Shown: positions 1-22,408, numbered from the stretch's first letter. The stretch: DNA of 34,258 bases from an uncultured Methanosarcinales archaeon (GCA_964403775.1 CAYOHL010000003.1:1-34258); one strand, 5' to 3'. Notes: a model not told the origin generated them from the letters alone. Numbers and translations are program-made.

Positions 1-55
1 AAATGCTCATCCTCATACTAAAGTATGAGGTTTTCGCAAGCATTTCTGTGCATAA
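1..55. repeat. Palindromic nested-hairpin repeat, copy 1 (cut by window edge)
   Basis: 54/55 identical to 9370-9424; AAATGCT..CCTCATACT-aa-AGTATGAGG..AGCATTT nested inverted repeats; lies just downstream of the srp54 stop. Confidence 0.85.
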
Positions 56-74
56 TAAAATTTTGGAAATTGTT

Positions 75-7494: not shown

Positions 7495-8586
7495 TCAGAC
7501 AATCTCTGTTTTATAGATTTCAGCAAAAGTTAAAAACAGCGATAGTATCAAAGGGCCTACAACAATTCCTATTATTCCAAACATAGCCAACCCGCCCAAT
7601 ATTCCCAAGAGTATTATTGTAGGATGAATCCTTGCCCTATCGCCTATTATTTTGGGCCTTATCAAATTGTCAATTGTTGAGATCACAATAAAGCCATAAG
7701 CAAGAAGGCCTATGCCTGCAATAGTTGCAGAAATATTATCTGATGTTAAACCAATAATGAGCTTAGATGCTCCAAGAGGGAACCATACCCATGGAGCTCC
7801 TATAAAAGGTATCATACAGGCAATTATCATAATAAGGCCCCATATAAGGGGGGATTCAATGCTAAATATATACAAGCCTAATGTACCAACCATGCCCTGG
7901 ATCAATGCTGTCATAAAGTGTCCGTATATAACAGCACGTGTAACACTGCCAAATTTTTTCACTATTTTGTTTTGGTAATGGCTTTTTAATGGTATAATAA
8001 CCTTTATCTTTTTAAGCATTAATTCTCCGTCTCTTAACATAAAAAAAGTTAAAAATACCATAACAAAAAAGCTGAGTATCCTTCTTGGTATTGTAAATGC
8101 AAAATTTGATAACAAACTTATTATGGTGTTTGTAATATTGTCAAGGGAAGAGTATATTTGTGGTTTCTTTGCTGTACTAACCAAGAAGGAGTTTAGCTTA
8201 TACAAAATATTGGAGTCAGATTCTGCCCCAATTATATCCCCCTCTGCAATCCTCTGCTTTGAATTAGCATAAACAGTTATTACTTCCCTTGTAAGTGAGT
8301 TTGCAACAAACAAAATAGGGGTGATTATTAAAATTATTATGAAAACTGTTACTATGCCCGCAGAAAGATTTTTTCTATTGGTTTTTTTATTAATCCATCT
8401 GTATAAAGGGTAGAATATATATGAAACTATAGTGCTGGTCAATATTGCAATTATAAACGGCCTGATAATCAGGAAAACCAGAAAAATAGCTATAAGAAAG
8501 AACAGCAGTATAAAATATTTTGAAAATTCCTCTTTTATTCTTCTGATATTATCAACCTCTTTAACTATTGCGAACGTAGTGAGCAA
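7495..8586 (-). CDS. AI-2E family transporter (PerM/UPF0118); true start uncertain
   Basis: Multi-TM; YPLY, IPFIGA, IDNLIRPKIIG, HP.IILLGILGG..FG..G..VGP motifs. Confidence 0.9.
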   Translation of the reverse strand: MLTTFAIVKEVDNIRRIKEEFSKYFILLFFLIAIFLVFLIIRPFIIAILTSTIVSYIFYPLYRWINKKTNRKNLSAGIVTVFIIILIITPILFVANSLTREVITVYANSKQRIAEGDIIGAESDSNILYKLNSFLVSTAKKPQIYSSLDNITNTIISLLSNFAFTIPRRILSFFVMVFLTFFMLRDGELMLKKIKVIIPLKSHYQNKIVKKFGSVTRAVIYGHFMTALIQGMVGTLGLYIFSIESPLIWGLIMIIACMIPFIGAPWVWFPLGASKLIIGLTSDNISATIAGIGLLAYGFIVISTIDNLIRPKIIGDRARIHPTIILLGILGGLAMFGIIGIVVGPLILSLFLTFAEIYKTEIV

Positions 8587-8587
8587 C

Positions 8588-8796
8588 TGGGCCTGCCCGG
8601 ACTTTCATAACCCTTGCGAGCGTTAGCGAGCGCGAGGGACTTCAATTGCAGGGCAATTGAATGTCGCTCTTTGCGTATCAAATGAGCGTAACCATTTGCG
8701 TGCCAGCTTAGCAAAGAAGCTGTTTTGAACCGGGGATATTCACCATTTTGATTTAAAATCGTCAAGGTGACATCATAGCCGCTAGATCACAGGCCC
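8588..8796 (-). tRNA. trnV: tRNA-Val(GAC) with two introns: canonical 37/38 (8746-8759, 14 nt) and T-loop 59/60 (8602-8723, 122 nt)
   Basis: Acceptor GGGCCTG/CAGGCCC-A, anticodon stem TCACC/GGTGA with TT-GAC-G, T stem CCCGG/CCGGG; BHB central helices TTGA/TCAA and TTCA/TGAA; splicing restores T loop TTCAAAT. Confidence 0.88.
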
Positions 8797-8848
8797 AACT
8801 AAAAAATATAAGATTAGAATTGATATTTAAATGTTTTGTAAAAAACCG

Positions 8849-8950
8849 AGCGAGAGTTGAACACTGCGCAGATTTTGGCCCAAAATTTGATAAAATGCAG
8901 GCGACATTCAGCTATCGCTGAAGTCCCCTAAAAAGCCCCGAGCGAGAGTT
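8849..8950. repeat. 102-bp direct repeat, left copy (att-like; contains tRNA-Thr 3' fragments)
   Basis: Identical to 13263-13364 by direct comparison. Confidence 0.95.
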
Positions 8951-8982
8951 ATAAAAAAGGTAGGAAATAAGGGAATATTTAT

Positions 8983-9144
8983 ATGATTATTTATGTGACG
9001 GGAACTATAATGTTTTTAGCTGGTGCACTTGTTATAGTGTTTATTAAATCAAAAAAGGTTTTGACTAAACAAGAGGGAATTTATCTAATATTATTCTACA
9101 TATTTTCATTAGTTGTAGAATTTGTTATCAATAAGGTGTTCTAG
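8983..9144 (+). pseudogene. C-terminal remnant of a Na+/Ca2+ antiporter (YrbG-like)
   Basis: Own translation MIIYVTGTIMFLAGALVIVFIKSKKVLTKQEGIYLILFYIFSLVVEFVINKVF*; the LTKxEG..L..FY pattern matches the last helices of this family. Confidence 0.55.
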
Positions 9145-9229
9145 AAAAAATATACTTAGATTTACACGCATCAGTTTTTAGCTATCTTTAGCCGTCTTCA
9201 CAGAATTCCTCTCATATTGTTTAAAATCA

Positions 9230-9424
9230 TAAAAATCCACAGAAAACTCCTACCAGCATCTAAAGATGCTGGTTTGACGGAGTTTTCTTTTGACAGTGGA
9301 TTTTTAGGACACAAGGAAAACATAGTTTTCCGGTGTGCCAAAAATGCAAAGCATTTTTGAGCATGCCAGAAATGCTCATCCTCATACTGAAGTATGAGGT
9401 TTTCGCAAGCATTTCTGTGCATAA
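9230..9424. repeat. Array of four nested hairpins (REP/MITE-like)
   Basis: TAAAAATCCAC/GTGGATTTTTA, AGAAAACTCC/GGAGTTTTCT, ACCAGCATC/GATGCTGGT, GGAAAAC/GTTTTCC, CAAAAATGC/GCATTTTTG, CAGAAATGCT/AGCATTTCTG; last unit also at 1-55. Confidence 0.85.
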
Positions 9425-9457
9425 GTAAAAGTTTGTCTTCAGCAGTAAGAAAATTTT

Positions 9458-9580
9458 GGCTAACATATGTGATTCACCGAAGCTGATTTTTCAGAGCTGG
9501 AGCAAATTGGGGCAACCCACAATTTGAGACCTCAAAAAATCAATTTGGAAGAAGTGAGGTGCAACCGAGCGTAGGTACAC
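9458..9580 (-). repeat. Long imperfect hairpin element ending in GTTAGCC (degenerate attC-like)
   Basis: TGATTTTT/AAAAATCA, CAAATTG/CAATTTG, GGG-CAA-CCC nested stems; side hairpin ACC-GAGCGTA-GGT; R'-like heptamer at 9458-9464. Confidence 0.4.
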
Positions 9581-9684
9581 AGCCTACTTGTTTCATAATG
9601 GGAGCAGATGATACACCTTCCATTGCAGTAGGAGCGTGTCTGGATTTCTATTGCTGACGGGAATTTCCTATGTTTGACTGGCAT
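9532..9684 (-). pseudogene. Truncated radical SAM protein (N-terminal CxxxCxxC only)
   Basis: Own translation MPVKHRKFPSAIEIQTRSYCNGRCIICSHYETSRL...; starts 10 nt after the upstream stop and runs into the hairpin element. Confidence 0.75.
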
Positions 9685-9693
9685 TTTTTGACA

Positions 9694-10596
9694 TCATTGA
9701 GATTTGAGTGTGCCCAGTATATATTCCTTAGCTTTTTTTAGTGACCCGTTAATATATAATGCTGGAACAGAGGCCACTAGGTTATCTAATGCAACTGCCC
9801 TTTTGGTAAAGAGATCCTCATTGTCAAATGATGGGTAATAAACAGGCCTCTCTGGAATCCAGAGGATGTTGGAAGCTCGGATATATGTTGATAGGGCTTC
9901 TGATAGAAGTATCTTGGCTTTCCGCGGCTTTATCTCATAGGAAGATAATTCTTTAGCAGATATGTCAATTTTGACAAGATATATCGCTGAGAGTGGTGGG
10001 TTAATGGTTGGGAATGGATTCGGGCTGCTAACCAAAACATAGTCATCATGATAAGGTGCTCCATTGAATGAATGATACTGAGCATTGACCTTCTTGATGA
10101 GAACCTCATTTGTTCCGCCGACAATTGTAGGTTGCTCTCCAGGCCGGCTTTGGATGACCGAGAGGTCTCCACTTAAAAGCTGGAATCCTGCGTGCTCGCA
10201 GAGGTCCAGTGCAATGGTGGTTTTGCCAGAGCCGCTTTCACCGAGAAAAAGTATCCCCTTATCTGAACCGGATACCGCAGAGGAATGAAGTATGTATCTG
10301 TCTGTCTGGTTAAGTAGAAGGTTGACGAATGGCAGGATTCCAATCATGAGGTTTTCCTTAGTAAATAAATCTTGTGCGAATGTAAGCTCTAGGCGAGATA
10401 TTCCTTTATCATCTATCTGGAGTATCACTCCTGGCTCTCCACTCCCGATGCTGATAATCCCGTCTATATGTCCTTCATAGTTTGGATGGTAAGAAAAGGA
10501 GGGTATGCTACAGCAACTTCCTTGGCTACCAAGGAGGTGGCCAGATTCTAACCCCTCTACTTTTAAGGTAAGGTCAAGTACTTGTATGGCTTGCAT
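9694..10596 (-). CDS. HPr kinase-like P-loop protein
   Basis: LHSSAV..GILFLGESGSGKTT..LLSGD arrangement typical of the HprK/PEPCK-like fold. Confidence 0.7.
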   Translation of the reverse strand: MQAIQVLDLTLKVEGLESGHLLGSQGSCCSIPSFSYHPNYEGHIDGIISIGSGEPGVILQIDDKGISRLELTFAQDLFTKENLMIGILPFVNLLLNQTDRYILHSSAVSGSDKGILFLGESGSGKTTIALDLCEHAGFQLLSGDLSVIQSRPGEQPTIVGGTNEVLIKKVNAQYHSFNGAPYHDDYVLVSSPNPFPTINPPLSAIYLVKIDISAKELSSYEIKPRKAKILLSEALSTYIRASNILWIPERPVYYPSFDNEDLFTKRAVALDNLVASVPALYINGSLKKAKEYILGTLKSQ

Positions 10597-10647
10597 GTGC
10601 CTTAGATATAAGAAGGATTATATAAATGTTATTATTATTTAGTGACT

Positions 10648-11208
10648 CTATTTTAGGGTTCTATTTGCTTTAAGCTTACCGGGGGAGAATATGTACTCGT
10701 AGAACTCTATTATCCTGGCAACCCTATCCATATTTCCCAAGACAGGATCCCTTATGATTACTGGTTCTCTCTTACAGGCCATCACATCAGAGATATCTTT
10801 TTTCATATACACATATTTCGGCCTCCATAAGAACCTTAAACCTGACAAGTGGTTGAGCAGGCGAATAAATGTAGGCTCGCTGTATGAGTATGTATATGCC
10901 AAGGTAGACCAGAAATTCCTGTCAAACACTACCTTTCTTATTAAGGGATTCTTGGCAGATTCTATTGCCAGGTACTCATATGCTATATTCAAGGACAGCA
11001 TATTCAACTGGCGGGTATAAGAGAATTTTCCGGGGTTAATCCTTATCTCGCTGATCACAATATTGTTGGGTTTAAGAAAGTGGTTCGAGATGTATGTTGT
11101 CTTGCCAGAGCCGGATATTCCCTCGAGAACAATAACTTTCGGATTTATTGGGAGAAGAATGTAATTGGAGAGGAATTGATCCAGCGCCTTCTTTGTTTTT
11201 TGCTCCAT
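10648..11208 (-). CDS. Thymidylate/deoxynucleoside kinase-like protein (likely start 11208 rather than 11277)
   Basis: VIVLEGISGSGKTT P-loop and VVFDRNFWSTLAY motif. Confidence 0.7.
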   Translation of the reverse strand: MEQKTKKALDQFLSNYILLPINPKVIVLEGISGSGKTTYISNHFLKPNNIVISEIRINPGKFSYTRQLNMLSLNIAYEYLAIESAKNPLIRKVVFDRNFWSTLAYTYSYSEPTFIRLLNHLSGLRFLWRPKYVYMKKDISDVMACKREPVIIRDPVLGNMDRVARIIEFYEYIFSPGKLKANRTLK

Positions 11209-11260
11209 TGTGCTTACTTTGAGAGATAAGTTTATATATTTTATCAAATAATCATCCATC

Positions 11261-11713
11261 ATGATCGATAAATACATTGTCAGGCCTTGCGTGGCAATAT
11301 TCAGGGAAAAAGAGATCCTGCTTGTGAGAAGCGTTTACAAAGGCGAAGAATTCTATGTGCTCCCTGGAGGGAAGCTGGAGGTAGGAGAGACCCTCGCTGA
11401 GTGCGCGGTCAGGGAGGTTCTTGAGGAGACACACCTAAAGGTGGAGATAGAGAAACTATTGTATCTGAGGGACTTTATAAATGAGGAGGACCATGTTGTT
11501 GATGTGTTCTTCTTGGCAAAGCTGAAGAGAAAGGAGGCACCCATAAATAGATTTAATCAATCCTTTAATGATACGGTCAAGTTTGTGGAGTTCCGTCCGC
11601 TGGCAGATCTTGGCAAACTTAAGTTTTATCCAAAGTTCTTGAGGAAGAGACTGGTGGAGGATTTCAATACTGGATTCAGAAACTGTCCGGCTTATATAGG
11701 TAAGATAGACTGA
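11261..11713 (+). CDS. NUDIX hydrolase
   Basis: Nudix box GGKLEVGETLAECAVREVLEETHL. Confidence 0.93.
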   Translation: MIDKYIVRPCVAIFREKEILLVRSVYKGEEFYVLPGGKLEVGETLAECAVREVLEETHLKVEIEKLLYLRDFINEEDHVVDVFFLAKLKRKEAPINRFNQSFNDTVKFVEFRPLADLGKLKFYPKFLRKRLVEDFNTGFRNCPAYIGKID

Positions 11714-11723
11714 AACTAGGAGT

Positions 11724-13097
11724 CTATTTTCTCATAGGTGTTTTTCCTTTCACAATCTGGGTTTTGAACAGTTTTGAATAGGCACTAAGTACCAGGGCTC
11801 TGTATGCTGAGAGGCCGTGAAGGAAATAGAAAGGAATACTTCCAATCAGCAGTTTTGGGAGCAGCCGATACCTATCTGCTGATGGAAAATCTCTTCTGAC
11901 TGATATGATACCAAAAAAGTTCACTGCGGTAAGATAGGTTATCATACTTATGACCATAAGGAGTAAGAGATATATATTTTGCTGGACTGCTGTCAGGACA
12001 AACCCTACTACCATCAGACTAGGTCCGACTATCCAGCGCACAGCATGACTAAATAGCTTGCTGCTGAGTACAAAAAGCCTTAGCCTATTCAGAGACCTCC
12101 ATTTTTGGACAATCTTGCGATAATATTGGAAGGATTGGAGAGGACCGAAGAACCAATTGGATTTCTGTAAGTAGAGGCCTCTTAAAGAATCAGGCGATTC
12201 GCAGCGGTCAAAAAATGGTATAGGAATAATTCTTACCCAAAGATAGCTCAGCCCTAGCCCAAATATGGCATCTTCATTATGTGTATCCTCCATAAATCCG
12301 CCAAGCTTGTGAAATATCTTTTCTGTGTAGACGAGACCATGGCCAATGCAGTAATTAAGTGGGTAAAGTATCCCTTTTAATGAAGGGTTGTTTCGCAGAG
12401 CTGAGAATTGGTCCAGGGCATGGGGGATCTCAAAGCCGATACTCCATCTGTTCTGCCAGGCTGTTGCACTGGCGAGCACGGCCCCTCTAAGACCCGGTGA
12501 GATAGTCTCAAGGTTTTTTGTGTAGTCCCCATATTGCTGGAAAACTTGTGCGCTAGGCGAGTTTTTGAGGTAACCGAGAATCCACCTAAAGGTATTTGGG
12601 TCGGGCCTAGAGTCGGCGTTGTATACTGCAAAGAGGGTTCCTTTGGGCTGCTTTTGCTTGAGTATCTCCCTCATGGCGTAGTTGAGTTGGAAGGACATTT
12701 TTCTTCCTGGCCCTGAATAATGATATAATTTTATACAGGAATATTTCCTGCACAGCTTCTTGGCTAGATCAATAGTATTATTTTTCTTGGAGATTGAGTA
12801 CTCTGCTTCTGTTGTGATTATGCATATCTTGAGATTCCGAAATTTAGAATAAGTATGGACAAAGTAATTTACAGTTGCCTGGAGCCTGGTTATCTCATCT
12901 AAGGCAGGTATGAGGATATAGATTCTCCTTGCAAGGTCATTTGCAGATAATGATAAGACAGGAGTGCTGGTTTTCAACCAGCGTCTTGCCCGGAGTATCT
13001 GGACAAACCAGAAGATTGAAAGAATGAAGAATAGGGCAATAATCGCATAGTTTGACCATAATACCCATGGGGTTAGTTGATGGACAAGGGGGCTCAT
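11724..13097 (-). CDS. Membrane GT2 glycosyltransferase (cellulose synthase-like motifs)
   Basis: ILIPALDE, K..QLNYA, YNADSRP, EDAIFG, QKSNW (QxxRW variant); N- and C-terminal TM helices. Confidence 0.85.
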   Translation of the reverse strand: MSPLVHQLTPWVLWSNYAIIALFFILSIFWFVQILRARRWLKTSTPVLSLSANDLARRIYILIPALDEITRLQATVNYFVHTYSKFRNLKICIITTEAEYSISKKNNTIDLAKKLCRKYSCIKLYHYSGPGRKMSFQLNYAMREILKQKQPKGTLFAVYNADSRPDPNTFRWILGYLKNSPSAQVFQQYGDYTKNLETISPGLRGAVLASATAWQNRWSIGFEIPHALDQFSALRNNPSLKGILYPLNYCIGHGLVYTEKIFHKLGGFMEDTHNEDAIFGLGLSYLWVRIIPIPFFDRCESPDSLRGLYLQKSNWFFGPLQSFQYYRKIVQKWRSLNRLRLFVLSSKLFSHAVRWIVGPSLMVVGFVLTAVQQNIYLLLLMVISMITYLTAVNFFGIISVRRDFPSADRYRLLPKLLIGSIPFYFLHGLSAYRALVLSAYSKLFKTQIVKGKTPMRK

Positions 13098-13262
13098 AGG
13101 ATAGTCATGGAAGCCATAGTTAATAAGCTTTTCCCATCATCATTAATTAGTAATTTAAAAGAGATATTTACAAGAAATTCTAATAATATATTACAACAAA
13201 ACTAAAAGTTTAGTCAAGAATTCTAATAATCCCTTGGAACCTACTTTTTTAGTTAAGCCCCT

Positions 13263-13364
13263 AGCGAGAGTTGAACACTGCGCAGATTTTGGCCCAAAAT
13301 TTGATAAAATGCAGGCGACATTCAGCTATCGCTGAAGTCCCCTAAAAAGCCCCGAGCGAGAGTT
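13263..13364. repeat. 102-bp direct repeat, right copy, overlapping the tRNA-Thr 3' end
   Basis: Identical to 8849-8950. Confidence 0.95.
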
Positions 13365-13420
13365 GAACTCGCGACCTCCACCTTACCAAGGTGGCGCTAT
13401 AGCCACTAAGCCACCGGGGC
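13348..13420 (-). tRNA. trnT: tRNA-Thr(GGT), intronless
   Basis: GCCCCGG/TCGGGGC-T acceptor, CCACC-TT-GGT-AA-GGTGG anticodon arm, GCGAG-TTCAACT-CTCGC T arm. Confidence 0.96.
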
Positions 13421-13431
13421 ATAAAAATTAA

Positions 13432-14583
13432 TCAAAAAATATCCCTGTTTTCTTCATCATCATTCTCATAATCGCTGTAATCCATTATATCTATGTTAGT
13501 ATCTTCTATTTCCTCTTCTTGCCTTTTTTTACTCTCTTCTTCCTGTTTATCTGTATAGTCTAAAACTGTTTCATAAGCTTTATTTTGCTTTGCATGCCTG
13601 TATTTCTTTTTGTTGTTCTTATCCTTCTTCCTTGGTTTAGGTTTCTTTTTTTTGATTTCCTCATCGCCTCCAGATTCTTTTTTGTAATTTTTTTCTTCAT
13701 CTTTTTTAGATTTTTTCTGTTCTGGTTCTTCAGGTTCTTGGGTAGCTTCAGTTTCTTTATTCTCTTCATCTTTTTTAGGCTTTTCCTCTTTTAAATCTTC
13801 ATGGGATTCTTCAGTCTTTTTATACTCTTTATCTAGATTCTCTCCTTTCTTTTTGTCTACTGATTCTTTTTTGGTTTCATTCTCTTCACTAAATTCAGCA
13901 GTCATATCCACATAACCCCCTTCTTCATGCTTTTGTTTTCTTCCTCTGAACAAAAACAATAAGACAGCAGCTAAAACAACAAAGCCTGCTGTCAGTATAA
14001 CATTTCTCCAGTTGATAACAACTATTTTTTTTGGTTCTAATACAACACATGAATGATTAACTGCGGTTTCATTAGGACTGCATTCCAGTTTCCTGCATTT
14101 GTAGATGCTGAATGTATTGCAGTATTCATCTTCTTCACACTCAGAGTCCTCTTTGCACTCAATCTTTGACAATGGAAGAACTGTAAAACTTTCCACAATT
14201 TTGCCGCATATCTCAAAAATCTGTTCTGGCTTATCAACATAAGACATCCTAAAACACGGAACATAATAAAAAGTATAGCCCTGTAGAGGAGCTTTAATAA
14301 GGTTTGTAAAATAAAAACTTCTAACCTCTCCTGGAGGTATAACAATATTCTCACTAACATCAAATCCAAGTATTGTGCCATAATCCCTGTCTTTTATGTG
14401 TACATCGCCAACATTGATGCTCTTGTTTATGTTATTAAACACATTAACCGTAAAAAATACTTCTGTTCCTTCAATACAATTCTTTTCCTTGCATTCATAA
14501 CTTGCATCTATTGCTGCTCCCACAAAGGCCATGTTAATTAAAAAAACTAATACAACAATCTGCAGTATTTTTGTCTTAACCAT
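13432..14583 (-). CDS. Hypothetical type I membrane/surface protein with Cys-rich ectodomain and Glu/Lys-rich tail
   Basis: Signal peptide, CKEDSECEEDEYC Cys cluster, single TM helix, low-complexity charged C-terminus; GGTGAT RBS. Confidence 0.75.
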   Translation of the reverse strand: MVKTKILQIVVLVFLINMAFVGAAIDASYECKEKNCIEGTEVFFTVNVFNNINKSINVGDVHIKDRDYGTILGFDVSENIVIPPGEVRSFYFTNLIKAPLQGYTFYYVPCFRMSYVDKPEQIFEICGKIVESFTVLPLSKIECKEDSECEEDEYCNTFSIYKCRKLECSPNETAVNHSCVVLEPKKIVVINWRNVILTAGFVVLAAVLLFLFRGRKQKHEEGGYVDMTAEFSEENETKKESVDKKKGENLDKEYKKTEESHEDLKEEKPKKDEENKETEATQEPEEPEQKKSKKDEEKNYKKESGGDEEIKKKKPKPRKKDKNNKKKYRHAKQNKAYETVLDYTDKQEEESKKRQEEEIEDTNIDIMDYSDYENDDEENRDIF

Positions 14584-14600
14584 ATTATATCACCACAAAA

Positions 14601-14710
14601 TGCGGGGGATGGGATTTGAACCCACGGACTCACTAAGAGACAGGATTTCTGCCTTGTAATTATATTTAGTCTTAAGTCCTGCGCATTTGACCAGACTTTG
14701 CTACCCCCGC
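14601..14710 (-). tRNA. trnL: tRNA-Leu(TAA) with a 24-nt canonical intron (14647-14670)
   Basis: GCGGGGG/CCCCCGC-A acceptor, CAGGA-CT-TAA-G|intron|A-TCCTG, long variable arm, GTGGG-TTCAAAT-CCCAT. Confidence 0.92.
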
Positions 14711-14751
14711 AGGATAGATAGAACAGAGAAATAGAATATATTTAAAGGTTT

Positions 14752-15315
14752 CTAAAGCTTTTTGGATGCACACCTTGTGCAGAGAAATGAGCCCTCAATT
14801 TCCCTTAGGTTTGTGGATGGAAAACCGCAAGCCTCGCACATGCCCTCTGATATAGGTCCGCCAAAAACAGGTTTTCTTGCTTCTTCTCTCAGCTCAAACT
14901 TCTCAACCATTAGCTCAAACAGCTCTGGCTGTATTTTGAGTATGTCTTTTAATGTAAGCAAGCCAATCATCTCTTTTTTGTCCATAACAGGCAGGTGTCT
15001 TACATCATAATCCTTCATCTTTTTGAGGGCGTCATAGATATCCTTCTCAGGACCTATTGTTATAACTCTTTTTATCATCACTTCACCAGCTTTCAATTCT
15101 TTTGGGTTTAGTCCTTTTGCAATAACCCTTCTTACAATATCCCTGTCAGATAATATGCCAAGAAGCTTATTTCCATCTGTTACAACAAGGCTTCCAACAT
15201 GATTTTTTAACATTTTTAGGGCACATTTCCCTATAGTTGTTTCTGGCAAAACAGAAACAGGCCTTTTTGTCATTGCATCACATATTTTATAACCTGTTTT
15301 ATATTTTGAGCTCAT
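14752..15315 (-). CDS. CBS-pair protein with C-terminal Zn ribbon
   Basis: Two CBS repeats (VGSLVV..GILSDRD; VRHLPV..GLLTLKD) plus CEACG..CTRC. Confidence 0.9.
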   Translation of the reverse strand: MSSKYKTGYKICDAMTKRPVSVLPETTIGKCALKMLKNHVGSLVVTDGNKLLGILSDRDIVRRVIAKGLNPKELKAGEVMIKRVITIGPEKDIYDALKKMKDYDVRHLPVMDKKEMIGLLTLKDILKIQPELFELMVEKFELREEARKPVFGGPISEGMCEACGFPSTNLREIEGSFLCTRCASKKL

Positions 15316-15401
15316 CTTAACCCTTAATGATAATAAAATATCTTCTACTTAATAAATTTACGTAAAATAGAAAATATATAACAAAAAGTATAATTCAGCA
15401 A

Positions 15402-17246
15402 TCAGTAATTAACCAATATTTCCACATCCTTGCCAAAGATATTTTTCATGTCTTCAAATATTGGCTCTTTTATAAAGACCTTTGACAGAGGCTCTATCTT
15501 TGATAGCTCTTTCTCAAGATCCTCAAAAGAGCTCTTGGTTATTTTTCCAAGTCCGCCATTAGGCAGTATTTCTGCCTTGCTAATCCTTTTTTCCTCCTGG
15601 TCAATGTCATGTATGATATAAGCATTTTTTCCAAGCAAAAGAACCTCCCCATACTTGTCTCCGTATTTTACTCTTATCTTTGTCCTTTCTATATCCATGC
15701 CTCTTTTTCTTTGTATATGCTCTACCATGAACCTAACAAATTCCTGAGAGCTTTTTTTAACTTTTTCAACCTCTGCCTTTGTTAATTTTTTCTCATCATA
15801 GTCTTTTTTTGCCTTCATTATGTCCTTTAATGTTCTTAAGAATTTTGCAGGTATTTTCCCATGGCTTATTATCTCCTTTTCAAATATGCTGACTATCTCT
15901 GTGTCACTAGCCCTCTCTATTCCCTCAAGCCTTAAAACATCTCTTATAACTGTAACAACAGTATCATAAACATGAAGCATTGACTCCTTTTCTTTTATTT
16001 TCTCTATCTGGCTGAATAATTTTTTTACCCTTTTAAGATATTTCTCTGCATTTTCAAGCAAGACATCAACCTCTTTACCACCGAGTTCTTTGGTTGTTCC
16101 ATGCTCAAGCTTTTTTCTAACCTCTATGTTATTTTCGAGTATTTTTATGTATTCCTCCTCTAACATTTTCTCTTTTTTTACAAACAGCTGCCTCATTAAG
16201 TCAGGGGTTTCCTTTGGGGTTGGAGGCGGAACACCATAAAGCATCAAAGCAGCCTGGCTTGGAGTTAAAATAGCCCAGAATATATCTTCCATTCCCAGGT
16301 CCCTTATCTTAAATTTAACATGCTTCAGCATCTGCTCCCCGCTGCTCATATACATATCAATTGCCTCTGCAGACGGCTTTATCTTGCCCATCTTCAACAA
16401 TTGCTTCCATGGCATAAATATCCCCCTGTCATAGAATGGAACCCCATCCCTCAGGAAAGTGAATATTATCGGATTGGCCTCCTTTATGTTGTCCCAGAAG
16501 TCTGTAAGTATATACACCTGGATATTCAGCTTGTTTTTAATTCCTGTAATTTCACCGGCTTCCATTCCCATTGTTATGATTATTGCCCTTAACTTATCTT
16601 TCAGTTCTGCCCTTGTCATCTTTTTGACGTCAGTGTCATCAACTACAATAAACACATCAATATCTGATTCAGATGTTGCCCTTCCCTGTACCAAAGAGCC
16701 TGCTAAAACATAGCTCACAATATATTTCTCAAACTTTTTAAGAACCATTGACTTATGGACCTCAGCTATCTTTACTGCAGAAAGCATTCCTGTATCATAA
16801 ACCGGGGCAGACAGCGCTATCATCTCCAGTATCTCATATTTACCGTCATAGCAGCTCTGCCATAGCTCAGAAAGGATAATTGTTTGGGGTGCAAGGTTTT
16901 TATCAACCTCTTTTGCCATTTTTTCTATAATGGATGACAGTTTTGTCTTAAGCTCATCCTTTGACATTCTCTTGCTGTCAGAATCATCAACCATAACAAG
17001 AATGTTTATCTGCTCACTGGGCTTTTCATCCTTTTCTGGCTTTTTTGGCGGCAGGAGTGCAATGCCAATTATGTAATTTTCAAACTTTTTCAGGGCTAGT
17101 TTCTTGAATTTATCAAGCCTTGATTTGATTGCTCTTAGTTTTTTCTGGGCCTCTTTCGGAAGCTTTGACTCAATTTCCTTGAACTGATTATTTTCTTTTG
17201 ATTTAATACCTTTATCATTATTTTTTTTAGTTTGTTTTTTAGCCAT
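15402..17246 (-). CDS. Nucleotidyltransferase-domain protein (tandem MNT-like domains plus helical HEPN-like region)
   Basis: GSLVQGRATSESDIDVFIVVDD Pol-beta motif with a degenerate N-terminal copy; AGGTGA RBS before ATG 17246. Confidence 0.75.
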   Translation of the reverse strand: MAKKQTKKNNDKGIKSKENNQFKEIESKLPKEAQKKLRAIKSRLDKFKKLALKKFENYIIGIALLPPKKPEKDEKPSEQINILVMVDDSDSKRMSKDELKTKLSSIIEKMAKEVDKNLAPQTIILSELWQSCYDGKYEILEMIALSAPVYDTGMLSAVKIAEVHKSMVLKKFEKYIVSYVLAGSLVQGRATSESDIDVFIVVDDTDVKKMTRAELKDKLRAIIITMGMEAGEITGIKNKLNIQVYILTDFWDNIKEANPIIFTFLRDGVPFYDRGIFMPWKQLLKMGKIKPSAEAIDMYMSSGEQMLKHVKFKIRDLGMEDIFWAILTPSQAALMLYGVPPPTPKETPDLMRQLFVKKEKMLEEEYIKILENNIEVRKKLEHGTTKELGGKEVDVLLENAEKYLKRVKKLFSQIEKIKEKESMLHVYDTVVTVIRDVLRLEGIERASDTEIVSIFEKEIISHGKIPAKFLRTLKDIMKAKKDYDEKKLTKAEVEKVKKSSQEFVRFMVEHIQRKRGMDIERTKIRVKYGDKYGEVLLLGKNAYIIHDIDQEEKRISKAEILPNGGLGKITKSSFEDLEKELSKIEPLSKVFIKEPIFEDMKNIFGKDVEILVNY

Positions 17247-17379
17247 AATCACTCACCTGATTATTTAATCATAAGATTAGCTAAAATAGGTTTATTATTA
17301 AGCATATATAAATCTTTTTAAAAAACTCAGGAGATTTTCCGGAGCATGCATAACTTAAATTAACCTTTCCCAAAGAAAA

Positions 17380-17874
17380 TTATTCCATTATGCCATGCTC
17401 TGAGTCATCTTCTACTCCTAGAAATTTAATAGCAGAAAACCCTTTTTTATAGTCTTCCCACATTTCTTCCCTTATAACAGAAGGAAAAACCTTGATGTTC
17501 TTAAGCTCTTTTTTTGAAAAGAATTTTAATTTCTTAATATAGCGCTCATCTTTCCCTTTCCCAACAATACCTTTAATAGATTTGCTGCCTTTATGCCTTG
17601 AGGAAGCTACATATAAATCAATATTATTCTCTTTCTGCTGATGAAAAATGAACTGTCTTATATAGGCAATCCTATCTAATTTTACCTTAAGGTTAGTTTC
17701 TTCTTTTACCTCTCTTTCCCCGCATTCAAAGATAGATTCAGTTCCTTTTAATCCACCGCCTGGCGGCACCCACCAGGTAAACCCTGTTATGGGGTCAACA
17801 TGCTTAACTAATAATATCTTATTATTTTCAAAGATTAAAACACCAACCCTTATCCTGTTTTCCAGTCTAACCAC
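17380..17874 (-). CDS. NUDIX hydrolase (GTG start)
   Basis: PGGGLKGTESIFECGEREVKEETNL Nudix box. Confidence 0.9.
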   Translation of the reverse strand: MVRLENRIRVGVLIFENNKILLVKHVDPITGFTWWVPPGGGLKGTESIFECGEREVKEETNLKVKLDRIAYIRQFIFHQQKENNIDLYVASSRHKGSKSIKGIVGKGKDERYIKKLKFFSKKELKNIKVFPSVIREEMWEDYKKGFSAIKFLGVEDDSEHGIME

Positions 17875-18029
17875 CTTTTATTTTTTAATATTGTAGTACT
17901 CTTGTCCCAAAAAGATAATATAATCAAGCTAAAATAAAGGTATTATAAAAAGTTATTGAAATTTGAAGCAGTAAAATTAATTAGAAAGCTTTATTAATAA
18001 AATTGATTGTTGTAATCCTATCATTGAGG

Positions 18030-18662
18030 ATGAAATACAAACTAATATGCTTTGACCTTGACGGCGTAATCTTTAAAGAGCCCAATTTCTGGCTAGAGCT
18101 GCATAAAAAATTTGGAACCCTTAAGAAAGGAAAAAAATTGACAGAAAAGCACCTTCACAATGATTATGGAAAGCTTGTTGAAGAGGTTGTTGTAAAGCTT
18201 TGGAAAGGCAGAGATGCAGGGCCTTACTATGAGCTTGTTGATTCAGTTGAATACAATAAAGGCGTTAAAGAGGTCTTTGAATATGTAAGGAAAAAAGGAC
18301 TTATAACTGCAATAATAAGCTCATCAAGCATTGATGCTGCAAAAAGAGTTAAGAGAGATTTTCAGGTTGATTATATATTTGCAAATGAACTTGTTATAAA
18401 AGATGGAAAGGTTTCTGGTGAATTTTTCTGGCCAATCGGAGCAGGAAAGGAAAACAAGGCAAGAGTAATAAGGGAGCTTTGCAATAAGCTTGGAATAAAA
18501 ACAGATGAGTGCATTTATATTGGGGACAACACTGTTGATATTGAGGCATTCAAGGAAGTCGGATTGTCAATAGCCTTTAATTCTGATTCAGATGAGCTAA
18601 AGAAAGCAGCAACATTTGTTGTTGAAAGCAGGAATCTTTCTGATGTTTTAAAATTTATTTAA
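18030..18662 (+). CDS. HAD-IB family phosphatase (SerB-like); start refined from 18003
   Basis: CFDLDGV, IISSS, FANEL, K, YIGDNTVD motifs. Confidence 0.85.
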   Translation: MKYKLICFDLDGVIFKEPNFWLELHKKFGTLKKGKKLTEKHLHNDYGKLVEEVVVKLWKGRDAGPYYELVDSVEYNKGVKEVFEYVRKKGLITAIISSSSIDAAKRVKRDFQVDYIFANELVIKDGKVSGEFFWPIGAGKENKARVIRELCNKLGIKTDECIYIGDNTVDIEAFKEVGLSIAFNSDSDELKKAATFVVESRNLSDVLKFI

Positions 18663-18683
18663 ACGAAAAAACACTAACCTTGC

Positions 18684-19691
18684 TCATTCAAGCAATTTGC
18701 TTATTGATTTTCTATGGTTTAACCTGCTGATAACCTCAGCAAAATAGTTTGCAACAGAAACCTCTTTATACCAGGGATTTTTTTCCCGGAAACCCTCTCC
18801 ATGATAAACAGCATCAGTTCCAATAACAGATGTTAAATACCCATCTTCATAAGATTCTGTTATTCTTTCTATGGCTGGCCTATTAAACAAAGCAAGACTG
18901 CAGGCTGCATACACTCTTTTGGTACTCTGCTCCTTGGATGCCTTAATAACCTCTATTAAAGTTTCAGCAGTGTCAATCATATCATCTATTATTAAAACAT
19001 CTTTCCCTTTAATTTCCCCAACTATTTGTATTGATTCAATGGAATTAGGCATATTATAGTTTCTATCCTTATAGGCAAAAACTACCTGCGCTCCAAGCAT
19101 TTTAGCGTAATATTTAGCTCTTTTGACTCCACCTGCATCAGGGGACATTACTGCTAGATTTTCAAGATTAAAATCATCCTTATTATTTTTAATATAATCA
19201 ATGATATTTTTAGAAGCATGCAGGTTTTCGAGTTTGATTTTTGTAAAAGATTCAGCAATAGTTGGATTATGTATATCTAAAGTTATAATATGGTTTGCAT
19301 TAACACTTTCAATCCATTTTGCAACCATTGTTGCGCCTATACCCTCCCTTCCTTCCTGCTTGTCCTGCCTTGCATAGGGAAACACTGGAATAACAGCAGT
19401 TATATAATCTGCGTCACTTCTATAAGCAGCATCAATAGCTGTCATCAGCGCTATCAGATTATCATTCACAGAGTAGGGGGTGACTGAATTTTCAACATCC
19501 TGAATAATATAAATATCTGCCCCCCGAATGCTCTCTTCTATAGTTGTTTTAATCTCTGTGTCTGCAAAATGCGTTTCATTAGAATTAATAATATCAATTT
19601 CCTCTCCCTTGTCCTTAAGTTTTTTTATAATCTTCTTTGCAAAAGGCCTTCCTGATTCACATGCAAGAATGCTTAATTTTCCCCTTGTCAT
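18684..19691 (-). CDS. prs: Ribose-phosphate pyrophosphokinase
   Basis: FADTE, PYARQDK, LDIH, SPDAGG, IIDDMIDTA. Confidence 0.95.
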   Translation of the reverse strand: MTRGKLSILACESGRPFAKKIIKKLKDKGEEIDIINSNETHFADTEIKTTIEESIRGADIYIIQDVENSVTPYSVNDNLIALMTAIDAAYRSDADYITAVIPVFPYARQDKQEGREGIGATMVAKWIESVNANHIITLDIHNPTIAESFTKIKLENLHASKNIIDYIKNNKDDFNLENLAVMSPDAGGVKRAKYYAKMLGAQVVFAYKDRNYNMPNSIESIQIVGEIKGKDVLIIDDMIDTAETLIEVIKASKEQSTKRVYAACSLALFNRPAIERITESYEDGYLTSVIGTDAVYHGEGFREKNPWYKEVSVANYFAEVISRLNHRKSISKLLE

Positions 19692-19801
19692 AAATATTCC
19701 CCCAAATAAGCTAGCAAATTAACTTATTTAAAAATATTTATGTCATACAAAATATTTAACAAAGAAAACAATTAAATACTACTTCTGTTAGAAAACATTA
19801 T

Positions 19802-21190
19802 ATGAAAATAAAACTTTTCGGGGCGGCCAAGACAGTAACAGGATCATGCTACAGCTTGGTTACAGGAAAAGACAAAATTCTTGTTGACTGCGGGATGTTT
19901 CAGGGAAGCAAAAAAGAAACTGCCTTAAACTACAATAAGTTTGGATTTAATCCAAAGAATTATTCAGCACTTCTTTTGACACATGCGCATCTTGACCACT
20001 GCGGCAGGATTCCAAAGCTTGTGAAAGCTGGATTTAGAGGCAGGATTTTCTGTACATCAGCAACAAAAGATTTGGCCAATATTATAATGCTTGACTCTGC
20101 AAAGATAAACCAGCATGATGTTGAGTTAGAGAACAAGAGAAGACAAAGATTGGGCCAGCCACCAAGAAAACCAATTTACACTGAGAAAGATGTTGGAAGT
20201 GCAATGAAATTATTTAAGGTGATTGAATATAATAAAACTATCCAGATTTCTAAGAATATCAATGCAACATTTTATGATGCAGGCCATATCCTTGGCTCAA
20301 GCTCTGTTCAGATTGAGGTAACTGAAAAAGGCAGGAAAAAAACTGTTGTTTTCTCAGGAGACCTTGGACAGGAGAGCACACCAATAATCAAGAGCCTGGA
20401 ATATATTAAAGAGGCAGACTATGTATTTGTTGAGTCAACATACGGCGATAGTATACATCCTCCAATAGCCGAGAGAAAGCAGGAGCTTCTTGATTTGATT
20501 CACAATACATATAATAATAACGGAAAGATTCTTATCCCTGCATTTGCAGTTGAGAGAACACAGGAGATTCTCTATGATCTCAATGAGCTGGTTGAAAAAA
20601 ACCTAATGCCTAAAATAAGTGTTTATGTTGATACCCCTATGGGCATAAGGGTAACAGAGGTTTTCAAAAGGCACCCTGAATGCTATAACAAAAAGATACT
20701 AGAGCTTCTTAATTCAGGAGACAACCCGTTTTCTTTTCCTGGATTAAAATACACACAGAATGTAAAAGATTCAATTAAGCTTAACAACTTGCATGAGCCG
20801 TGCATAATTATTGCTGGCAGCGGCATGTGCACTGGCGGAAGGATAAAGCACCATATAAAGCATCACATATGGGATAAAAGAAACACAATGCTGTTTGTTG
20901 GCTATCAAGCAAGGGGCACGCTCGGCTATTACATAAAAAAAGGGGAAAAAAGAATAAGGCTCTTGGGCACAGAGGTTGCTGTCAAGGCAAAAATTGAATC
21001 AATTGAAGGCTTTTCAGCCCATGCAGACTATAAGGGATTGCTTAACTGGCTTAGGCATTTTTCTCCAAAGCCAAAAAAAGTATTTCTTATGCATGGTGAA
21101 GAAGAGGCAATGATTCCTTTCTCAAAAAGAATTGAAAAGCTTGGCCTAAAAGCAAGGATTCCTTATATGGAAGAAGAAATCACTCTTTGA
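19802..21190 (+). CDS. MBL-fold beta-CASP ribonuclease (Ysh1/TTHA0252-like)
   Basis: VTGSC, DCGMFQG, THAHLDHCG, AGHILGS, SGDLG, ESTYG, AGSGMCTGGR, FSAHAD, HGE. Confidence 0.92.
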   Translation: MKIKLFGAAKTVTGSCYSLVTGKDKILVDCGMFQGSKKETALNYNKFGFNPKNYSALLLTHAHLDHCGRIPKLVKAGFRGRIFCTSATKDLANIIMLDSAKINQHDVELENKRRQRLGQPPRKPIYTEKDVGSAMKLFKVIEYNKTIQISKNINATFYDAGHILGSSSVQIEVTEKGRKKTVVFSGDLGQESTPIIKSLEYIKEADYVFVESTYGDSIHPPIAERKQELLDLIHNTYNNNGKILIPAFAVERTQEILYDLNELVEKNLMPKISVYVDTPMGIRVTEVFKRHPECYNKKILELLNSGDNPFSFPGLKYTQNVKDSIKLNNLHEPCIIIAGSGMCTGGRIKHHIKHHIWDKRNTMLFVGYQARGTLGYYIKKGEKRIRLLGTEVAVKAKIESIEGFSAHADYKGLLNWLRHFSPKPKKVFLMHGEEEAMIPFSKRIEKLGLKARIPYMEEEITL

Positions 21191-22160
21191 TAACTTTTTT
21201 TATCTCTTTCTGCAAGCTTCTTTTTATCATTGAGTCATGGCTTGCAACAACCTGCGCAGCAACATATGAGGCAATCTTTCCAGAGGTTTTGACATCAAAG
21301 CCGTGTGAGATTCCATAGAGAAATCCGCCAGCATAAGCATCCCCTGCTCCGGTTGTGTTTAAAGTATTTACCTTAAAGCCTTTTATTTTGTGAAAACCAC
21401 TATTATCCATAACAAGGCTGCCTTTTTCACCAATCTTAACTATCGCTATCTTACAGAATTTCTTTATTTCCTCAACTGCCTCAATTGGCTTTTTTCCAGT
21501 CAGCATTTCAGCTTCATCCTCATTTGCAAAGATAATATCAGCATAGTCCTTGATAATCATGTTTATTTTATCCCTGTGCCTTTCTATGAGTGCTGGGTCT
21601 GCAAGGTCAACTGAAATTAAAATATTATTCTTTTTTGCATGCTCCATTGCATGCAGCACTGCCTCTCTCTGTTTTTCACCATCAAGCTGGTATGCCTCAA
21701 TATGAAGGATTTTTGAGTTGCTTATATCATCAAGGTTAATGTCATTTTTGGTTAAATTCATTCCTGCTCCAAGGCAAGTTGCCATTGTTCTTTCAGCATC
21801 AGGTGTTACCATAATAACAGATGTGCCCTGAATTTCATTGCATGATTTGAGGTTAATGGTAACTCCTAATTCCTCAATTAGCCTCCGGTATTTATCACCA
21901 TGATTATCATTGCCTATCATTCCAATAAAAAGGGATTTTCCGCCCAGGCTGCATACGCTTGCAAGCGCATTTGGAACACTTCCTCCTGCAGAATCCTTTA
22001 CAGAATTAATATCCAGCATTGAGAGCAGCCTCCTGCTCTGCTCAGAGTTTATGAGGTTCATACTTGTCCTTCTTAGCCCAGTGTTTAATATGAACTCTTC
22101 ACTTACTTCTATAACCTTGTCAAGAAGGGGATATCCAATGCCTATAACATCATATTTCAT
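21180..22160 (-). CDS. PfkB family kinase (adenosine/nucleoside kinase-like)
   Basis: AGGSVPN, ERTMATCLGA, FANEDEA, NTTGAGDAYAGGFL. Confidence 0.9.
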   Translation of the reverse strand: MKYDVIGIGYPLLDKVIEVSEEFILNTGLRRTSMNLINSEQSRRLLSMLDINSVKDSAGGSVPNALASVCSLGGKSLFIGMIGNDNHGDKYRRLIEELGVTINLKSCNEIQGTSVIMVTPDAERTMATCLGAGMNLTKNDINLDDISNSKILHIEAYQLDGEKQREAVLHAMEHAKKNNILISVDLADPALIERHRDKINMIIKDYADIIFANEDEAEMLTGKKPIEAVEEIKKFCKIAIVKIGEKGSLVMDNSGFHKIKGFKVNTLNTTGAGDAYAGGFLYGISHGFDVKTSGKIASYVAAQVVASHDSMIKRSLQKEIKKVIKE

Positions 22161-22180
22161 CTCTACCCCAAATAAAAAAC

Positions 22181-22408
22181 CGCCGGGACTGGGACTTTCA
22201 CCAATGGCTGCGAACGAAGTGAACTAAGGGGATTTGGATTTTAAGCCAAATCCTCTATGCGTGCCAGCTTAGCAAGAAGCTGTGCGTAACCATTTGTTTT
22301 GAACCCAGATATCCTTTCGGAAACTGGCTGTTTTGGGCAAAACCAAATCCTATAATTAAATTGCTCGCCGCTCAAGGCCAGCGCAATGCCAGATTATGCG
22401 ATCCCGGC
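22181..22408 (-). tRNA. trnS: tRNA-Ser(TGA) with two introns: canonical 37/38 (22330-22370, 41 nt) and T-loop 59/60 (22195-22297, 103 nt)
   Basis: GCCGGGA/TCCCGGC-G acceptor, CTGGC-CT-TGA-G..A-GCCAG, variable arm TCC-GAAA-GGA, T stem CTGGG/CCCAG; BHB helix TTCA/TGAA; splicing restores TTCAAAT. Confidence 0.88.

Follow-up and report, generated by a model that had tools for sequence, protein, structure and literature searches.

The tRNA-Val(GAC) and tRNA-Ser(UGA) genes on a 34,258-nt contig of a woesearchaeal genome are both interrupted in the T-loop, after nucleotide 59, and we regard it as quite probable that the two interruptions are genuine bulge-helix-bulge (BHB) introns made of a recombining, probably mobile family of hairpin repeats. 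The genome, here called G000, is a freshwater Woesearchaeales metagenome-assembled genome (MAG) of 882,920 bp in 100 contigs, with a G+C content of 35.8%, 92% completeness and 1% contamination. The window is the whole 34,258-nt stretch that was analysed and corresponds to contig C3; other contigs of G000 carry C numbers and sampled loci carry L numbers.

Two tRNA genes interrupted in the T-loop

On the unedited sequence, ARAGORN and Rfam called neither the Val(GAC) nor the Ser(UGA) gene. Once the T-loop insert was deleted in silico, ARAGORN returned full-length genes, Val(gac) i(38,14) and Ser(tga) i(39,41). Removal of the insert restores a canonical tRNA in each case, and the T-loop then reads TTCAAAT, the loop that the initial annotation had expected cleavage to produce. 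That annotation had also described correctly the flanks shared by the two inserts, TTCAAA-ACA...TGAAAG-T (here and below, a hyphen within such flanks or bulges marks the exon-intron boundary). It had taken 8602-8723 and 22195-22297 for the tRNA genes; these are the coordinates of the inserts, and the genes themselves run from 8796 to 8588 and from 22408 to 22181.

8796-8588, minus strand: tRNA-Val(GAC) gene, 209 nt; exons 8796-8760, 8745-8724 and 8601-8588
8746-8759, minus strand: anticodon-side intron of tRNA-Val(GAC), 14 nt; placement by ARAGORN
8602-8723, minus strand: predicted T-loop intron of tRNA-Val after nt 59, 122 nt; T-stem CCCGG/CCGGG, central helix TTCA/TGAA, bulges AA-A and AG-T
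22408-22181, minus strand: tRNA-Ser(UGA) gene, 228 nt; exons 22408-22371, 22329-22298 and 22194-22181
22330-22370, minus strand: anticodon-side intron of tRNA-Ser(UGA), 41 nt; placement by ARAGORN
22195-22297, minus strand: predicted T-loop intron of tRNA-Ser after nt 59, 103 nt; T-stem CTGGG/CCCAG, central helix TTCA/TGAA, bulges AA-A and AG-T

Both inserts have BHB ends of 3-4-3 geometry around the TTCA/TGAA helix, with the predicted cleavage sites following the second bulge base of either strand. In terms of the strict hBHBh' motif, the flank h is the T-stem and h' is formed by the 5' arm of the intron together with its closing arm; in Ser, this outer helix is CAAATGG/CCATTGG with six of seven pairs. 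The arrangement recurs in 71 family introns from 14 independent assemblies (G000 and 13 of those matched by the exact module A scan described below), and in all of these the 5' and 3' exons agree in T-stem and acceptor stem. The intron base facing T-loop position 57 tracks it. TTCA loops are matched by TGAA (31 introns), TGGA (4) or the mismatched CGAA (3), TTCG loops by CGAA (14), CGGA (4), TGAA with a G.U pair (11) or TAAA (1), and TCCG loops by CGGA (3). All four central pairs form in 67 of the 71 introns, a proportion that is partly circular since the census admitted only inserts with at least three of four central pairs and a perfect T-stem.

The outer helix covaries with the intron 5' end as the central helix does with the T-loop: introns starting with CAGCTT close with AAGCTG, CAGCTG is matched with CAGTTG, and CAAATG with CATTTG, CATTGG or CATTAG. 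The two ends of an intron pair at -8.50 kcal/mol. Shuffled partners give -6.17 +/- 0.27, with 0 of 500 as strong as the observed value; since the sequences are related by descent, the test overstates the signal.

The two genes are not isolated cases. Short-word BLAST of both inserts against the genome gave matches on 13 other contigs, nearly all in the T-loops of other tRNA genes. In silico splicing followed by ARAGORN yielded 14 T-loop-interrupted genes in G000, namely Ser-UGA, Ser-GGA, Val-GAC, Val-UAC, Val-CAC, Ile-UAU, Glu-UUC, Glu-CUC, Pro-GGG, Pro-UGG, Pro-CGG, Gly-CCC, Arg-CCU and Asp-GUC, with the anticodon read by eye for several tRNAs where the ARAGORN label was wrong. Lys-CUU (C28) and Arg-UCU (C35) were identified by eye because additional introns defeat ARAGORN. 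The tRNA set of G000 thus comprises about 40 genes: 21 above the Rfam cut-off, 3 with D-loop introns and 16 with a 59/60 insert. The insert belongs to the module family described below in 15 of these 16 genes (15 of about 40, or about 40%), all copies in G000 being sense-oriented; that of Asp-GUC is 18 nt long and unrelated. ARAGORN finds zero Val, Pro, Glu or Asp tRNAs in G000 as it stands. No uninterrupted gene for any of these four was found in the assembly either, and the interrupted genes should therefore be functional.

Assembled contigs from four DNA metagenome runs end inside both window introns, and a clean intron-less allele was not seen in the contigs of these runs. Short joints that skip 97 nt, from 22200 to 22298, were detected. 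They have sides of 20 nt with other letters between them, and on these grounds they probably derive from related loci.

The genome encodes the enzymes that such introns would need. A single EndA gene (C83:530-1129, locus L013) specifies a protein of 199 aa with N-terminal and catalytic domains (PF01974, PF02778), whose closest solved relatives are the alpha subunit of Nanoarchaeum equitans and the alpha4 EndA of Methanocaldococcus jannaschii. It aligns with the latter without gaps, and a 6-residue insert seen in the N. equitans protein is missing from it. No second EndA subunit was found at E <= 1 in the 92% complete genome. The RtcB ligase is encoded at C1:23638-24894. The N-terminus of EndA carries a lysine-rich tail of about 27 residues (MAKEKKAKSKEKKEEPKEKKSKSKKKKVKA), absent from the solved alpha4 enzyme, which may provide an extra RNA-binding surface.

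We infer that the inserts are likely to be real BHB introns and that Val(GAC) and Ser(UGA) would be working tRNA genes with two introns each. The T-stem would act as the first flanking helix, and T54-R57 would pair with YGAA near the intron 3' end to give the central helix of 4 bp. The bulges would then consist of A58-A59 plus the first intron base and of the last two intron bases plus T60, while the first hairpin arm of the intron would form the second flanking helix with the closing arm. A single alpha4-like EndA would cut both bulges and RtcB would join the exons; the excised intron would probably be circularised.

Modules, grammar and turnover of the predicted introns

The two window introns are assembled from shared parts. 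The core of module A, GCTAAGCTGGCACGCA, is present at 8697-8712 and 22258-22273 and nowhere else in the window, where 0 occurrences are expected (100 shuffles); module B, CAAATGGTTACGC, likewise has two copies only, at 8686-8698 and 22284-22296, against an expectation of 0. Val has the two modules in the order A-B, Ser in the order B-A. Positions and order are as initially annotated. The hairpins that had been thought private to each intron proved to be core hairpins of types I (Val) and III (Ser), both of which are widespread in the tRNA introns of G000 and its relatives.

8697-8723, minus strand: Val module A, hairpin CAGCTT-CTTTGCT-AAGCTG with tail GCACGCA; its 5' arm doubles as a strand of the outer helix
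8672-8698, minus strand: Val module B, hairpin CAAATG-GTTACGCT-CATTTG with tail ATACGCA
8616-8671, minus strand: Val core hairpin of type I, GAGCGAC-A-TTCAATTGC...GCAATTGAA-GTCCCTC, and D motif GCTCGCTAACGCTCGC
8602-8615, minus strand: Val closing arm and BHB 3' half, AAGGGTTA TGAA AG
22284-22296, minus strand: Ser module B, 5' half only, placed as the 5' strand of the outer helix
22258-22283, minus strand: Ser module A, ACAGCTTCTTGCTAAGCTGGCACGCA
22210-22257, minus strand: Ser core hairpin of type III, AGAGGAT-TTGG...CCAA-ATCCCCT, and D motif GTTCACTTCGTTCGC
22195-22209, minus strand: Ser closing arm and BHB 3' half, AG CCATTGG TGAA AG

Across the family, module A has the consensus CAGCTT-CTTGCT-AAGCTG followed by GCACGCA, with a stem that covaries in other copies (CAGCTG/CAGCTG), and module B reads CAAATG-GTTACGCT-CATTTG followed by ATACGCA. 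The two look like variants of one unit, and A/B hybrids exist. An intron consists of A and/or B, one core hairpin, a D motif, optional extra hairpins, the closing arm and YGAAAG. Family introns measure 76-217 nt; short derivatives of 42-45 nt also survive (L048, L070). Core hairpins combine a variable upper stem with a lower stem that contains a single conserved mismatch, and they have a bulged A. They fall into at least four sequence types linked by compensatory changes (among them GAGCGAC/GTCCCTC, GGCGGGC/GCCCACC, AGAGGAT/ATCCCCT). MAFFT misaligned the core types and RNAalifold recovered the D hairpin alone, so that the units were folded singly; 59 of 62 distinct core hairpins then gave z < -2. 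In the D motif, GCTCGC-N3-4-GCTCGC, the pair at positions 5/-5 is G:C in 52 units, A:T in 10 and mixed in none.

Comparison of orthologous loci revealed rapid turnover of these parts. At eight syntenic Val(GAC) loci of the genus the exons are nearly identical and the module sets unlike, with the variants A-B-core I-D, B-core I-D, A-core II-D, B-core II-D and others. In an all-against-all comparison of 67 introns, 34 had their orthologue as closest match, whereas for 33 the closest match lay in a different tRNA; these proportions are biased and drawn from an incomplete sample because the loci were collected by exact match to module A. The window Val intron matches an orthologue in another genome (173 bits; 94% over 115 nt) about as well as the Arg-CCU intron of its own genome (161 bits; 96% over 101 nt), and Val(GAC) and Arg(CCU) introns of G000 share 96-98% identity over 90-101 nt. 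The A-B-core-D architecture of Val(GAC) is repeated in an orthologue from another genome (L002/L041; 93% over 189 nt). The window Ser intron has module A only in common with its orthologues, and its best matches are introns of other tRNAs. The initial annotation had proposed to look for the modules elsewhere and to compare orthologous tRNA loci: modules recur in other G000 tRNAs and in relatives, and module sets differ between orthologues.

One sampled locus, L032 (CAZXME contig, 1-240), joins the 5' exon of a tRNA-Arg(CCU) and an array to the 3' exon of a tRNA-Val; this chimera reflects either ectopic recombination between introns or misassembly at the repeat.

The module repeats appear to be confined to one taxonomic family of Woesearchaeales, apart from the weak relative G204. 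Intron modules were matched in all 12 other genomes of that family (12/12), which represent three genera. Among 28 other families of the order, weak matches occurred in five only, and the single one of these that was listed (G029) covers the 5' exon alone. A single-array query against 201 genomes of the order matched four, namely G000, both of the two other genomes of its family and, weakly, G204. An exact scan for module A, with one genome per prokaryote species, returned 70 loci in 14 assemblies, whose titles are Woesearchaeota, Nanoarchaeota or (mislabelled) Methanosarcinales. The exception is a 2-kb contig in an 'Actinomycetota' bin with a tRNA-Arg that carries a family intron, and this contig is probably mis-binned. 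Module A had 0 matches in viral contigs. In metagenome contigs, at least 119 stretches carry module A, with 80 loci among the matches listed.

The insertion site has a different distribution. A plain T-loop of 7 nt is seen in 19 of 23 Val genes that belong to other families of the order; the remaining four contain unrelated 59/60 introns of 12, 21, 35 and 44 nt. On this comparison, site 59/60 is older and wider than the module family and is not special to it.

Several observations weigh against the interpretation as spliced introns of a mobile family, in addition to the limits given above with the central-helix count, the shuffle test and the ortholog comparison. The TTCA/TGAA helix with two 3-nt bulges, as initially annotated, can be drawn for both genes; in Val, the minimum-free-energy fold has a 5' bulge of 1 nt rather than 3 nt, and the outer helix h' is weak, with a C.A mismatch followed by five pairs of which three are G.U. 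According to passages of PMC3239211, alpha4 EndA requires the strict motif. Among the sequencing runs listed as containing the window, none is RNA; the DNA runs come from freshwater sediment. All genomes are short-read MAGs with contigs that break in the arrays, and these breaks together with the L032 chimera mean that some module orders could be assembly errors. Module A is nearly invariant over 14 assemblies, and its conservation over three genera exceeds what would be expected of a neutral passenger, which hints at a function. Finally, no recombinase or transposase was found to track the family; Y1 transposases and tyrosine recombinases were examined, and serine recombinases, Cas1-like and other enzymes were not searched.

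Copies behind tRNA genes and proposed routes of spread

Modules also lie outside introns. The 70 genome loci hold 81 copies of module A, of which 64 are in T-loops, 11 in 3' trailers and 6 elsewhere; 51 copies fall inside census introns and the other 30 were classed by eye (13 T-loop, 11 trailer, 6 non-tRNA). Trailer arrays begin 2-3 nt past the discriminator, and all 11 module-A trailers are sense. Among the metagenome matches listed, 97 copies were classed automatically as T-loop (59), trailer (13) or other (25), and inspection by eye of these 25 assigned about 11 to T-loop variants or truncated forms and about 12 to non-tRNA DNA. The window Val gene is itself followed by a remnant of a trailer array.

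8570-8587, minus strand: trailer-array remnant GTTGCTCACTACGTTCGC; the full array is present in orthologous loci (compare L003/L040)

Away from tRNA genes, arrays lie on both sides of an AAA-ATPase gene on C100, a contig of 1551 bp that ends inside both arrays and was also considered as a candidate 3' half of a split tRNA. In L035 and L063, a gene on the opposite strand has an array adjoining its C-terminal end or cutting it short. The FNGxIDDVRI motif of that gene resembles LamG-type domains. A 434-aa frame through the L035 array is a low-complexity antisense frame and not a gene.

We propose that the arrays would spread and be reshuffled at the DNA level among tRNA T-loops and 3' trailers and would rarely reach other intergenic DNA. 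The route could be recombination between shared modules or insertion targeted to tRNA 3' ends with duplication of the 3' exon. Arrays would survive in essential genes because they bring along all that a strict BHB requires. To us, a selfish element tolerated in a 'safe harbour' seems more likely than a functional RNA.

Tandem units of an array plus a tRNA 3' exon were found in G000 (C9 and C85) and at L067, L058 and L029; on C9, the second 3' exon is incompatible with the T-stem of the gene itself. Decayed copies of 3' exons are present at L034 and L082. Val(CAC) occurs in several states. At L083 the tRNA is intact and intron-less, with an array in its trailer; at L029 the tRNA is likewise intact, and the array behind it includes a BHB 3' half and leads into a second, perfect 3' exon; in G000, L019, L079 and L082 the gene has the array as intron.

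The tRNA-Thr(GGT) site of the window provides a further series, marked by a 117-nt direct repeat (8834-8950 and 13248-13364).

13256-13420, minus strand: tRNA-Thr(GGT) unit; tRNA 13420-13348, 71-nt element 13347-13277, copy of tRNA nt 53-73 at 13276-13256
8846-8949, minus strand: second tRNA-Thr unit; tRNA nt 58-73 at 8949-8934, 71-nt element 8933-8863, T-arm copy 8862-8846

Read along the minus strand, the order is tRNA-Thr, element, copy of nt 53-73, island, copy of nt 58-73, element, T-arm copy and a spacer to tRNA-Val. The 4.3-kb island (8950-13255) carries genes for a NUDIX protein, for a GT2 glycosyltransferase and for two proteins that resemble P-loop kinases; no integrase was found in it. 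In three relatives the Thr-Val gap is 48 nt long and empty, with neither element nor island. L036 carries a 79-nt hairpin element and a 21-23-nt duplicate of the tRNA 3' end at this site, L006 has the element and lacks the duplicate, and one metagenome contig joins 8848 to 13263 and represents the island-free form. The 71-nt element represents a diverged sub-family; it is similar to the B'/core sub-family, in inverted orientation.

In total, direct repeats of the tRNA 3' segment were found at the window tRNA-Thr, L036, L029, C9, C85, L067, L058 and G204; ordinary T-loop introns lack the duplication. At the G204 locus, which comes from another taxonomic family (L127, G204:C20:23400-23748), a tRNA-Pro(CGG) is followed by two tandem units of an A-like hairpin element plus a 17-nt tRNA 3' end, in a sequence that is partly N-masked. 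These arrangements suggest that elements continue to insert at tRNA 3' ends in this group and to duplicate the tRNA from the T-loop on.

This raises the possibility that the introns themselves originate as remnants or non-autonomous forms of integrative elements which use the segment from the T-loop to the tRNA 3' end as attachment site, an explanation to which we give less than an even chance. Mini-elements might insert there and duplicate the 3' exon. As the end of the element would pair with T54-R57, the transcript could be spliced to either 3' exon, and decay or loss of the upstream copy would leave a new intron wherever a BHB forms; we put this sequence of events forward tentatively. The empty, filled and island-bearing Thr sites, the metagenome contig that joins across the island, the Val(CAC) states, the intact and decayed tandem 3' exons and the G204 units all fit, and parts of PMC3293823 put forward a similar model for the tRNA-Thr(GGU) of Caldiarchaeum. 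The same tandem units are explained equally well if intron arrays recombine homologously with trailer arrays. Moreover, the Thr element stems from a diverged sub-family, the island has no integrase, both Xer-like tyrosine recombinases of G000 are conserved throughout the order, and viral contigs are free of module A. T-loop introns are already present in a second genus (L106), so that the intron-less Val(CAC) forms may be secondary.

Alternatively, the arrays could be a family of functional small RNAs that ride on tRNA transcription and are released by EndA as an intron circle or by RNase Z as a trailer, with the hairpins and their motifs (loop CUUGCU, tails GCACGCA/AUACGCA, GCUCGC repeats) as binding sites for protein or RNA. 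We consider this doubtful. It would account for the near-invariance of module A, for the compensatory changes in the hairpins and for the position of the arrays exactly where tRNA processing frees RNA, in T-loop introns and just past the discriminator; the uniform sense orientation of the genome trailers and the 13 further trailers among the listed metagenome matches agree with it. A precedent is described in part in PMC3491384, where N. equitans small RNAs (sRNAs) of the C/D box class lie in a tRNA-Met intron and directly behind tRNA-Val. Against a conserved RNA stand inverted relatives behind tRNAs (a Val trailer in G006, the window tRNA-Thr element and G204), copies in non-tRNA DNA of which some are antisense to their neighbours, and orthologues that freely swap or delete modules down to the 42-45-nt derivatives. 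No RNA family in Rfam matched in or near the introns, and no target or partner is known. C/D box sRNAs in particular were considered and rejected, as the C box RTGATGA is present in 0 of 71 introns. The conservation of module A and the processing-friendly sites speak for an RNA function of the modules, and the inverted and non-tRNA copies and the module swapping speak against one.

It is very unlikely that the modules are hairpins of the kind known from repetitive extragenic palindromes (REPs) or palindrome-associated transposable elements (PATEs), moved as single strands by the IS200/IS605-type Y1 transposase of G000. The genome does contain a complete Y1_Tnp gene (C74:2587-3015), and the modules are hairpins with conserved tails which lack terminal inverted repeats and lie 3' of similar short sequences. 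The transposase is found in only 7 of the 12 family genomes (32-49% identity) and also in 6 of 28 other families without arrays; its best homologues (59% and 57%) are in such array-free families of the order, which suggests that it moved horizontally. Furthermore, its own end hairpins are unlike the modules and its contig has no module match. A link to IS200 elements or REP-associated tyrosine transposases (RAYTs) is weakly refuted by this distribution. With regard to miniature inverted-repeat transposable elements, the 5' arm and the closing arm of the introns are inverted repeats, but they double as the RNA helix h', and the T-loop junctions show no short target duplication.

The idea of a mobile cassette family with its own BHB ends, as put forward in the initial annotation, holds as a description, given the 15 tRNA genes, the 12 of 12 relatives, the non-orthologous best matches and the trailer and non-tRNA copies; it fares less well as to the mover, with neither the Y1 transposase nor the Xer-like recombinases co-varying with the family.

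That the inserts are disrupted pseudogenes or repeat-assembly artefacts is hardly credible: contigs do break at arrays and one locus (L032) is chimeric, but the exon halves match in T-stem and acceptor stem in 71 introns of 14 assemblies, exons are conserved where introns vary, the Val(GAC) architecture recurs in L002/L041, and whole isoacceptor families have no intact copies in the assembly.

Several other features were noted in the same genomes. G000 carries D-loop introns in tRNA-Phe, Gln(CUG), Ile(GAU) and Lys(CUU), with similar ends GCCTGG-AAAAT...GTTTGGG and enlarged to about 80 nt in Lys(CUU), which look like a second position-specific intron family.

C47:1152-1250, C26:4752-4849, C67:3918-4062 and C28:2259-2541: tRNA genes with D-loop introns

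At L109 (G107:C21, 1459-1730), a whole tRNA-Val(UAC) apparently lies inside a D-region insert of another Val-like gene, giving a 'gene' of 272 nt. If the 13-nt intron of the G000 tRNA-Pro(GGG) (C9:2555-2737) is taken to lie at 37/38, this tRNA would have C33 where U33 is near-universal; the genome also encodes a tRNA-Ile with anticodon UAU (C8:19508-19708). Candidates on C19 and C12 turned out not to be tRNAs. Within the window, positions 9220-9430 (plus strand) hold two units of a second, unrelated, hairpin-rich dispersed repeat without an Rfam match. It has 28 matches at about 20 genome loci, mostly contig ends and including window positions 1-65, and its depth in the four metagenome runs is 100-217x, compared with 4-16x in the surroundings.

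Relation to known tRNA introns and mobile repeats

The T-loop introns of this group would offer a tractable case for the origin of archaeal tRNA introns, with one family at one position in about 40% of the tRNA genes and fast turnover between congeners. In passages of the review PMC4090602 the mechanism of tRNA-intron transposition is called unknown, and a 2026 survey of Asgard archaea (10.64898/2026.10.13.758758) did not, in the text accessible to us, find a general arrival route for tRNA introns. Long modular T-loop introns appear to be undescribed in Woesearchaeales or DPANN in the literature searched, where supplementary tRNA tables (PMC5829648, PMC3239211) might list similar genes. Such introns may be one reason why tRNAs are scored as missing by standard tools in Nanobdellota and DPANN genomes (10.64898/2026.05.13.725050, PMC5829648). 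They also bear on what EndA accepts: provided that the strict motif comes with the intron, an ordinary alpha4-like enzyme may be enough for many non-canonical introns. Intermediate forms are at hand in the trailer arrays, the tandem 3' exons and the empty and filled tRNA-Thr sites; if insertion came first, living congeners would display all stages of intron birth, from the empty site through a tRNA with element and duplicate and tandem 3' exons to a clean intron.

In bacteria, REPs and bacterial interspersed mosaic elements (BIMEs), associated with RAYT transposases, are mosaics of dispersed hairpin units with conserved linker motifs. Unlike these, the present elements are tracked by no Y1 transposase and lie overwhelmingly in or behind tRNA genes, equipped with splice signals.

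The closest match in position is Ca. Micrarchaeum ARMAN-2, for which part of PMC3239211 reports 59/60 BHB introns in tRNA-Cys(GCA) and tRNA-Pro(GGG). These introns are 13 nt long, and the 59/60 intron was cleaved in vitro; the one tested has a relaxed hBH motif, and the enzyme is of the epsilon2 type. Both systems use the same position and build the BHB with the T-arm, and the EndA cleavage shown there is predicted here. The introns described here differ in their length (76-217 nt), their modular structure, their presence in 15 tRNA genes, their own outer helix and the single alpha4-like EndA.

The tRNA-linked C/D box sRNAs of N. equitans, called mobile and freed by tRNA processing in passages of PMC3491384, likewise place structured RNA within a tRNA intron or immediately after the tRNA. 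In our family, by contrast, no intron has a C box, none matches Rfam and inverted copies exist.

Large-scale transposition of introns has been described for Thermoproteales, where similar introns are found in unrelated tRNAs (PMC4090602 and PMC4033280, citing Fujishima et al. 2010). As here, this sharing was read as spread at the DNA level. The Thermoproteales case concerns Crenarchaeota with an (alpha-beta)2 EndA and introns at many positions, whereas the woesearchaeal introns occupy one position, follow a modular grammar, have units also in trailers and intergenic DNA and come with tandem 3'-exon intermediates.

For the tRNA-Thr(GGU) of Caldiarchaeum, intron gain by integration of a mobile element was proposed, as described in portions of PMC3293823. 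Both cases show population heterogeneity at the locus and scattered tRNA fragments beside the insert, and both tie intron gain to integration or recombination. The Caldiarchaeum element is 1.8 kb long and encodes a recombinase, whereas the units described here are 70-200 nt long and the fragments beside them are tRNA 3' ends that begin at the T-loop.

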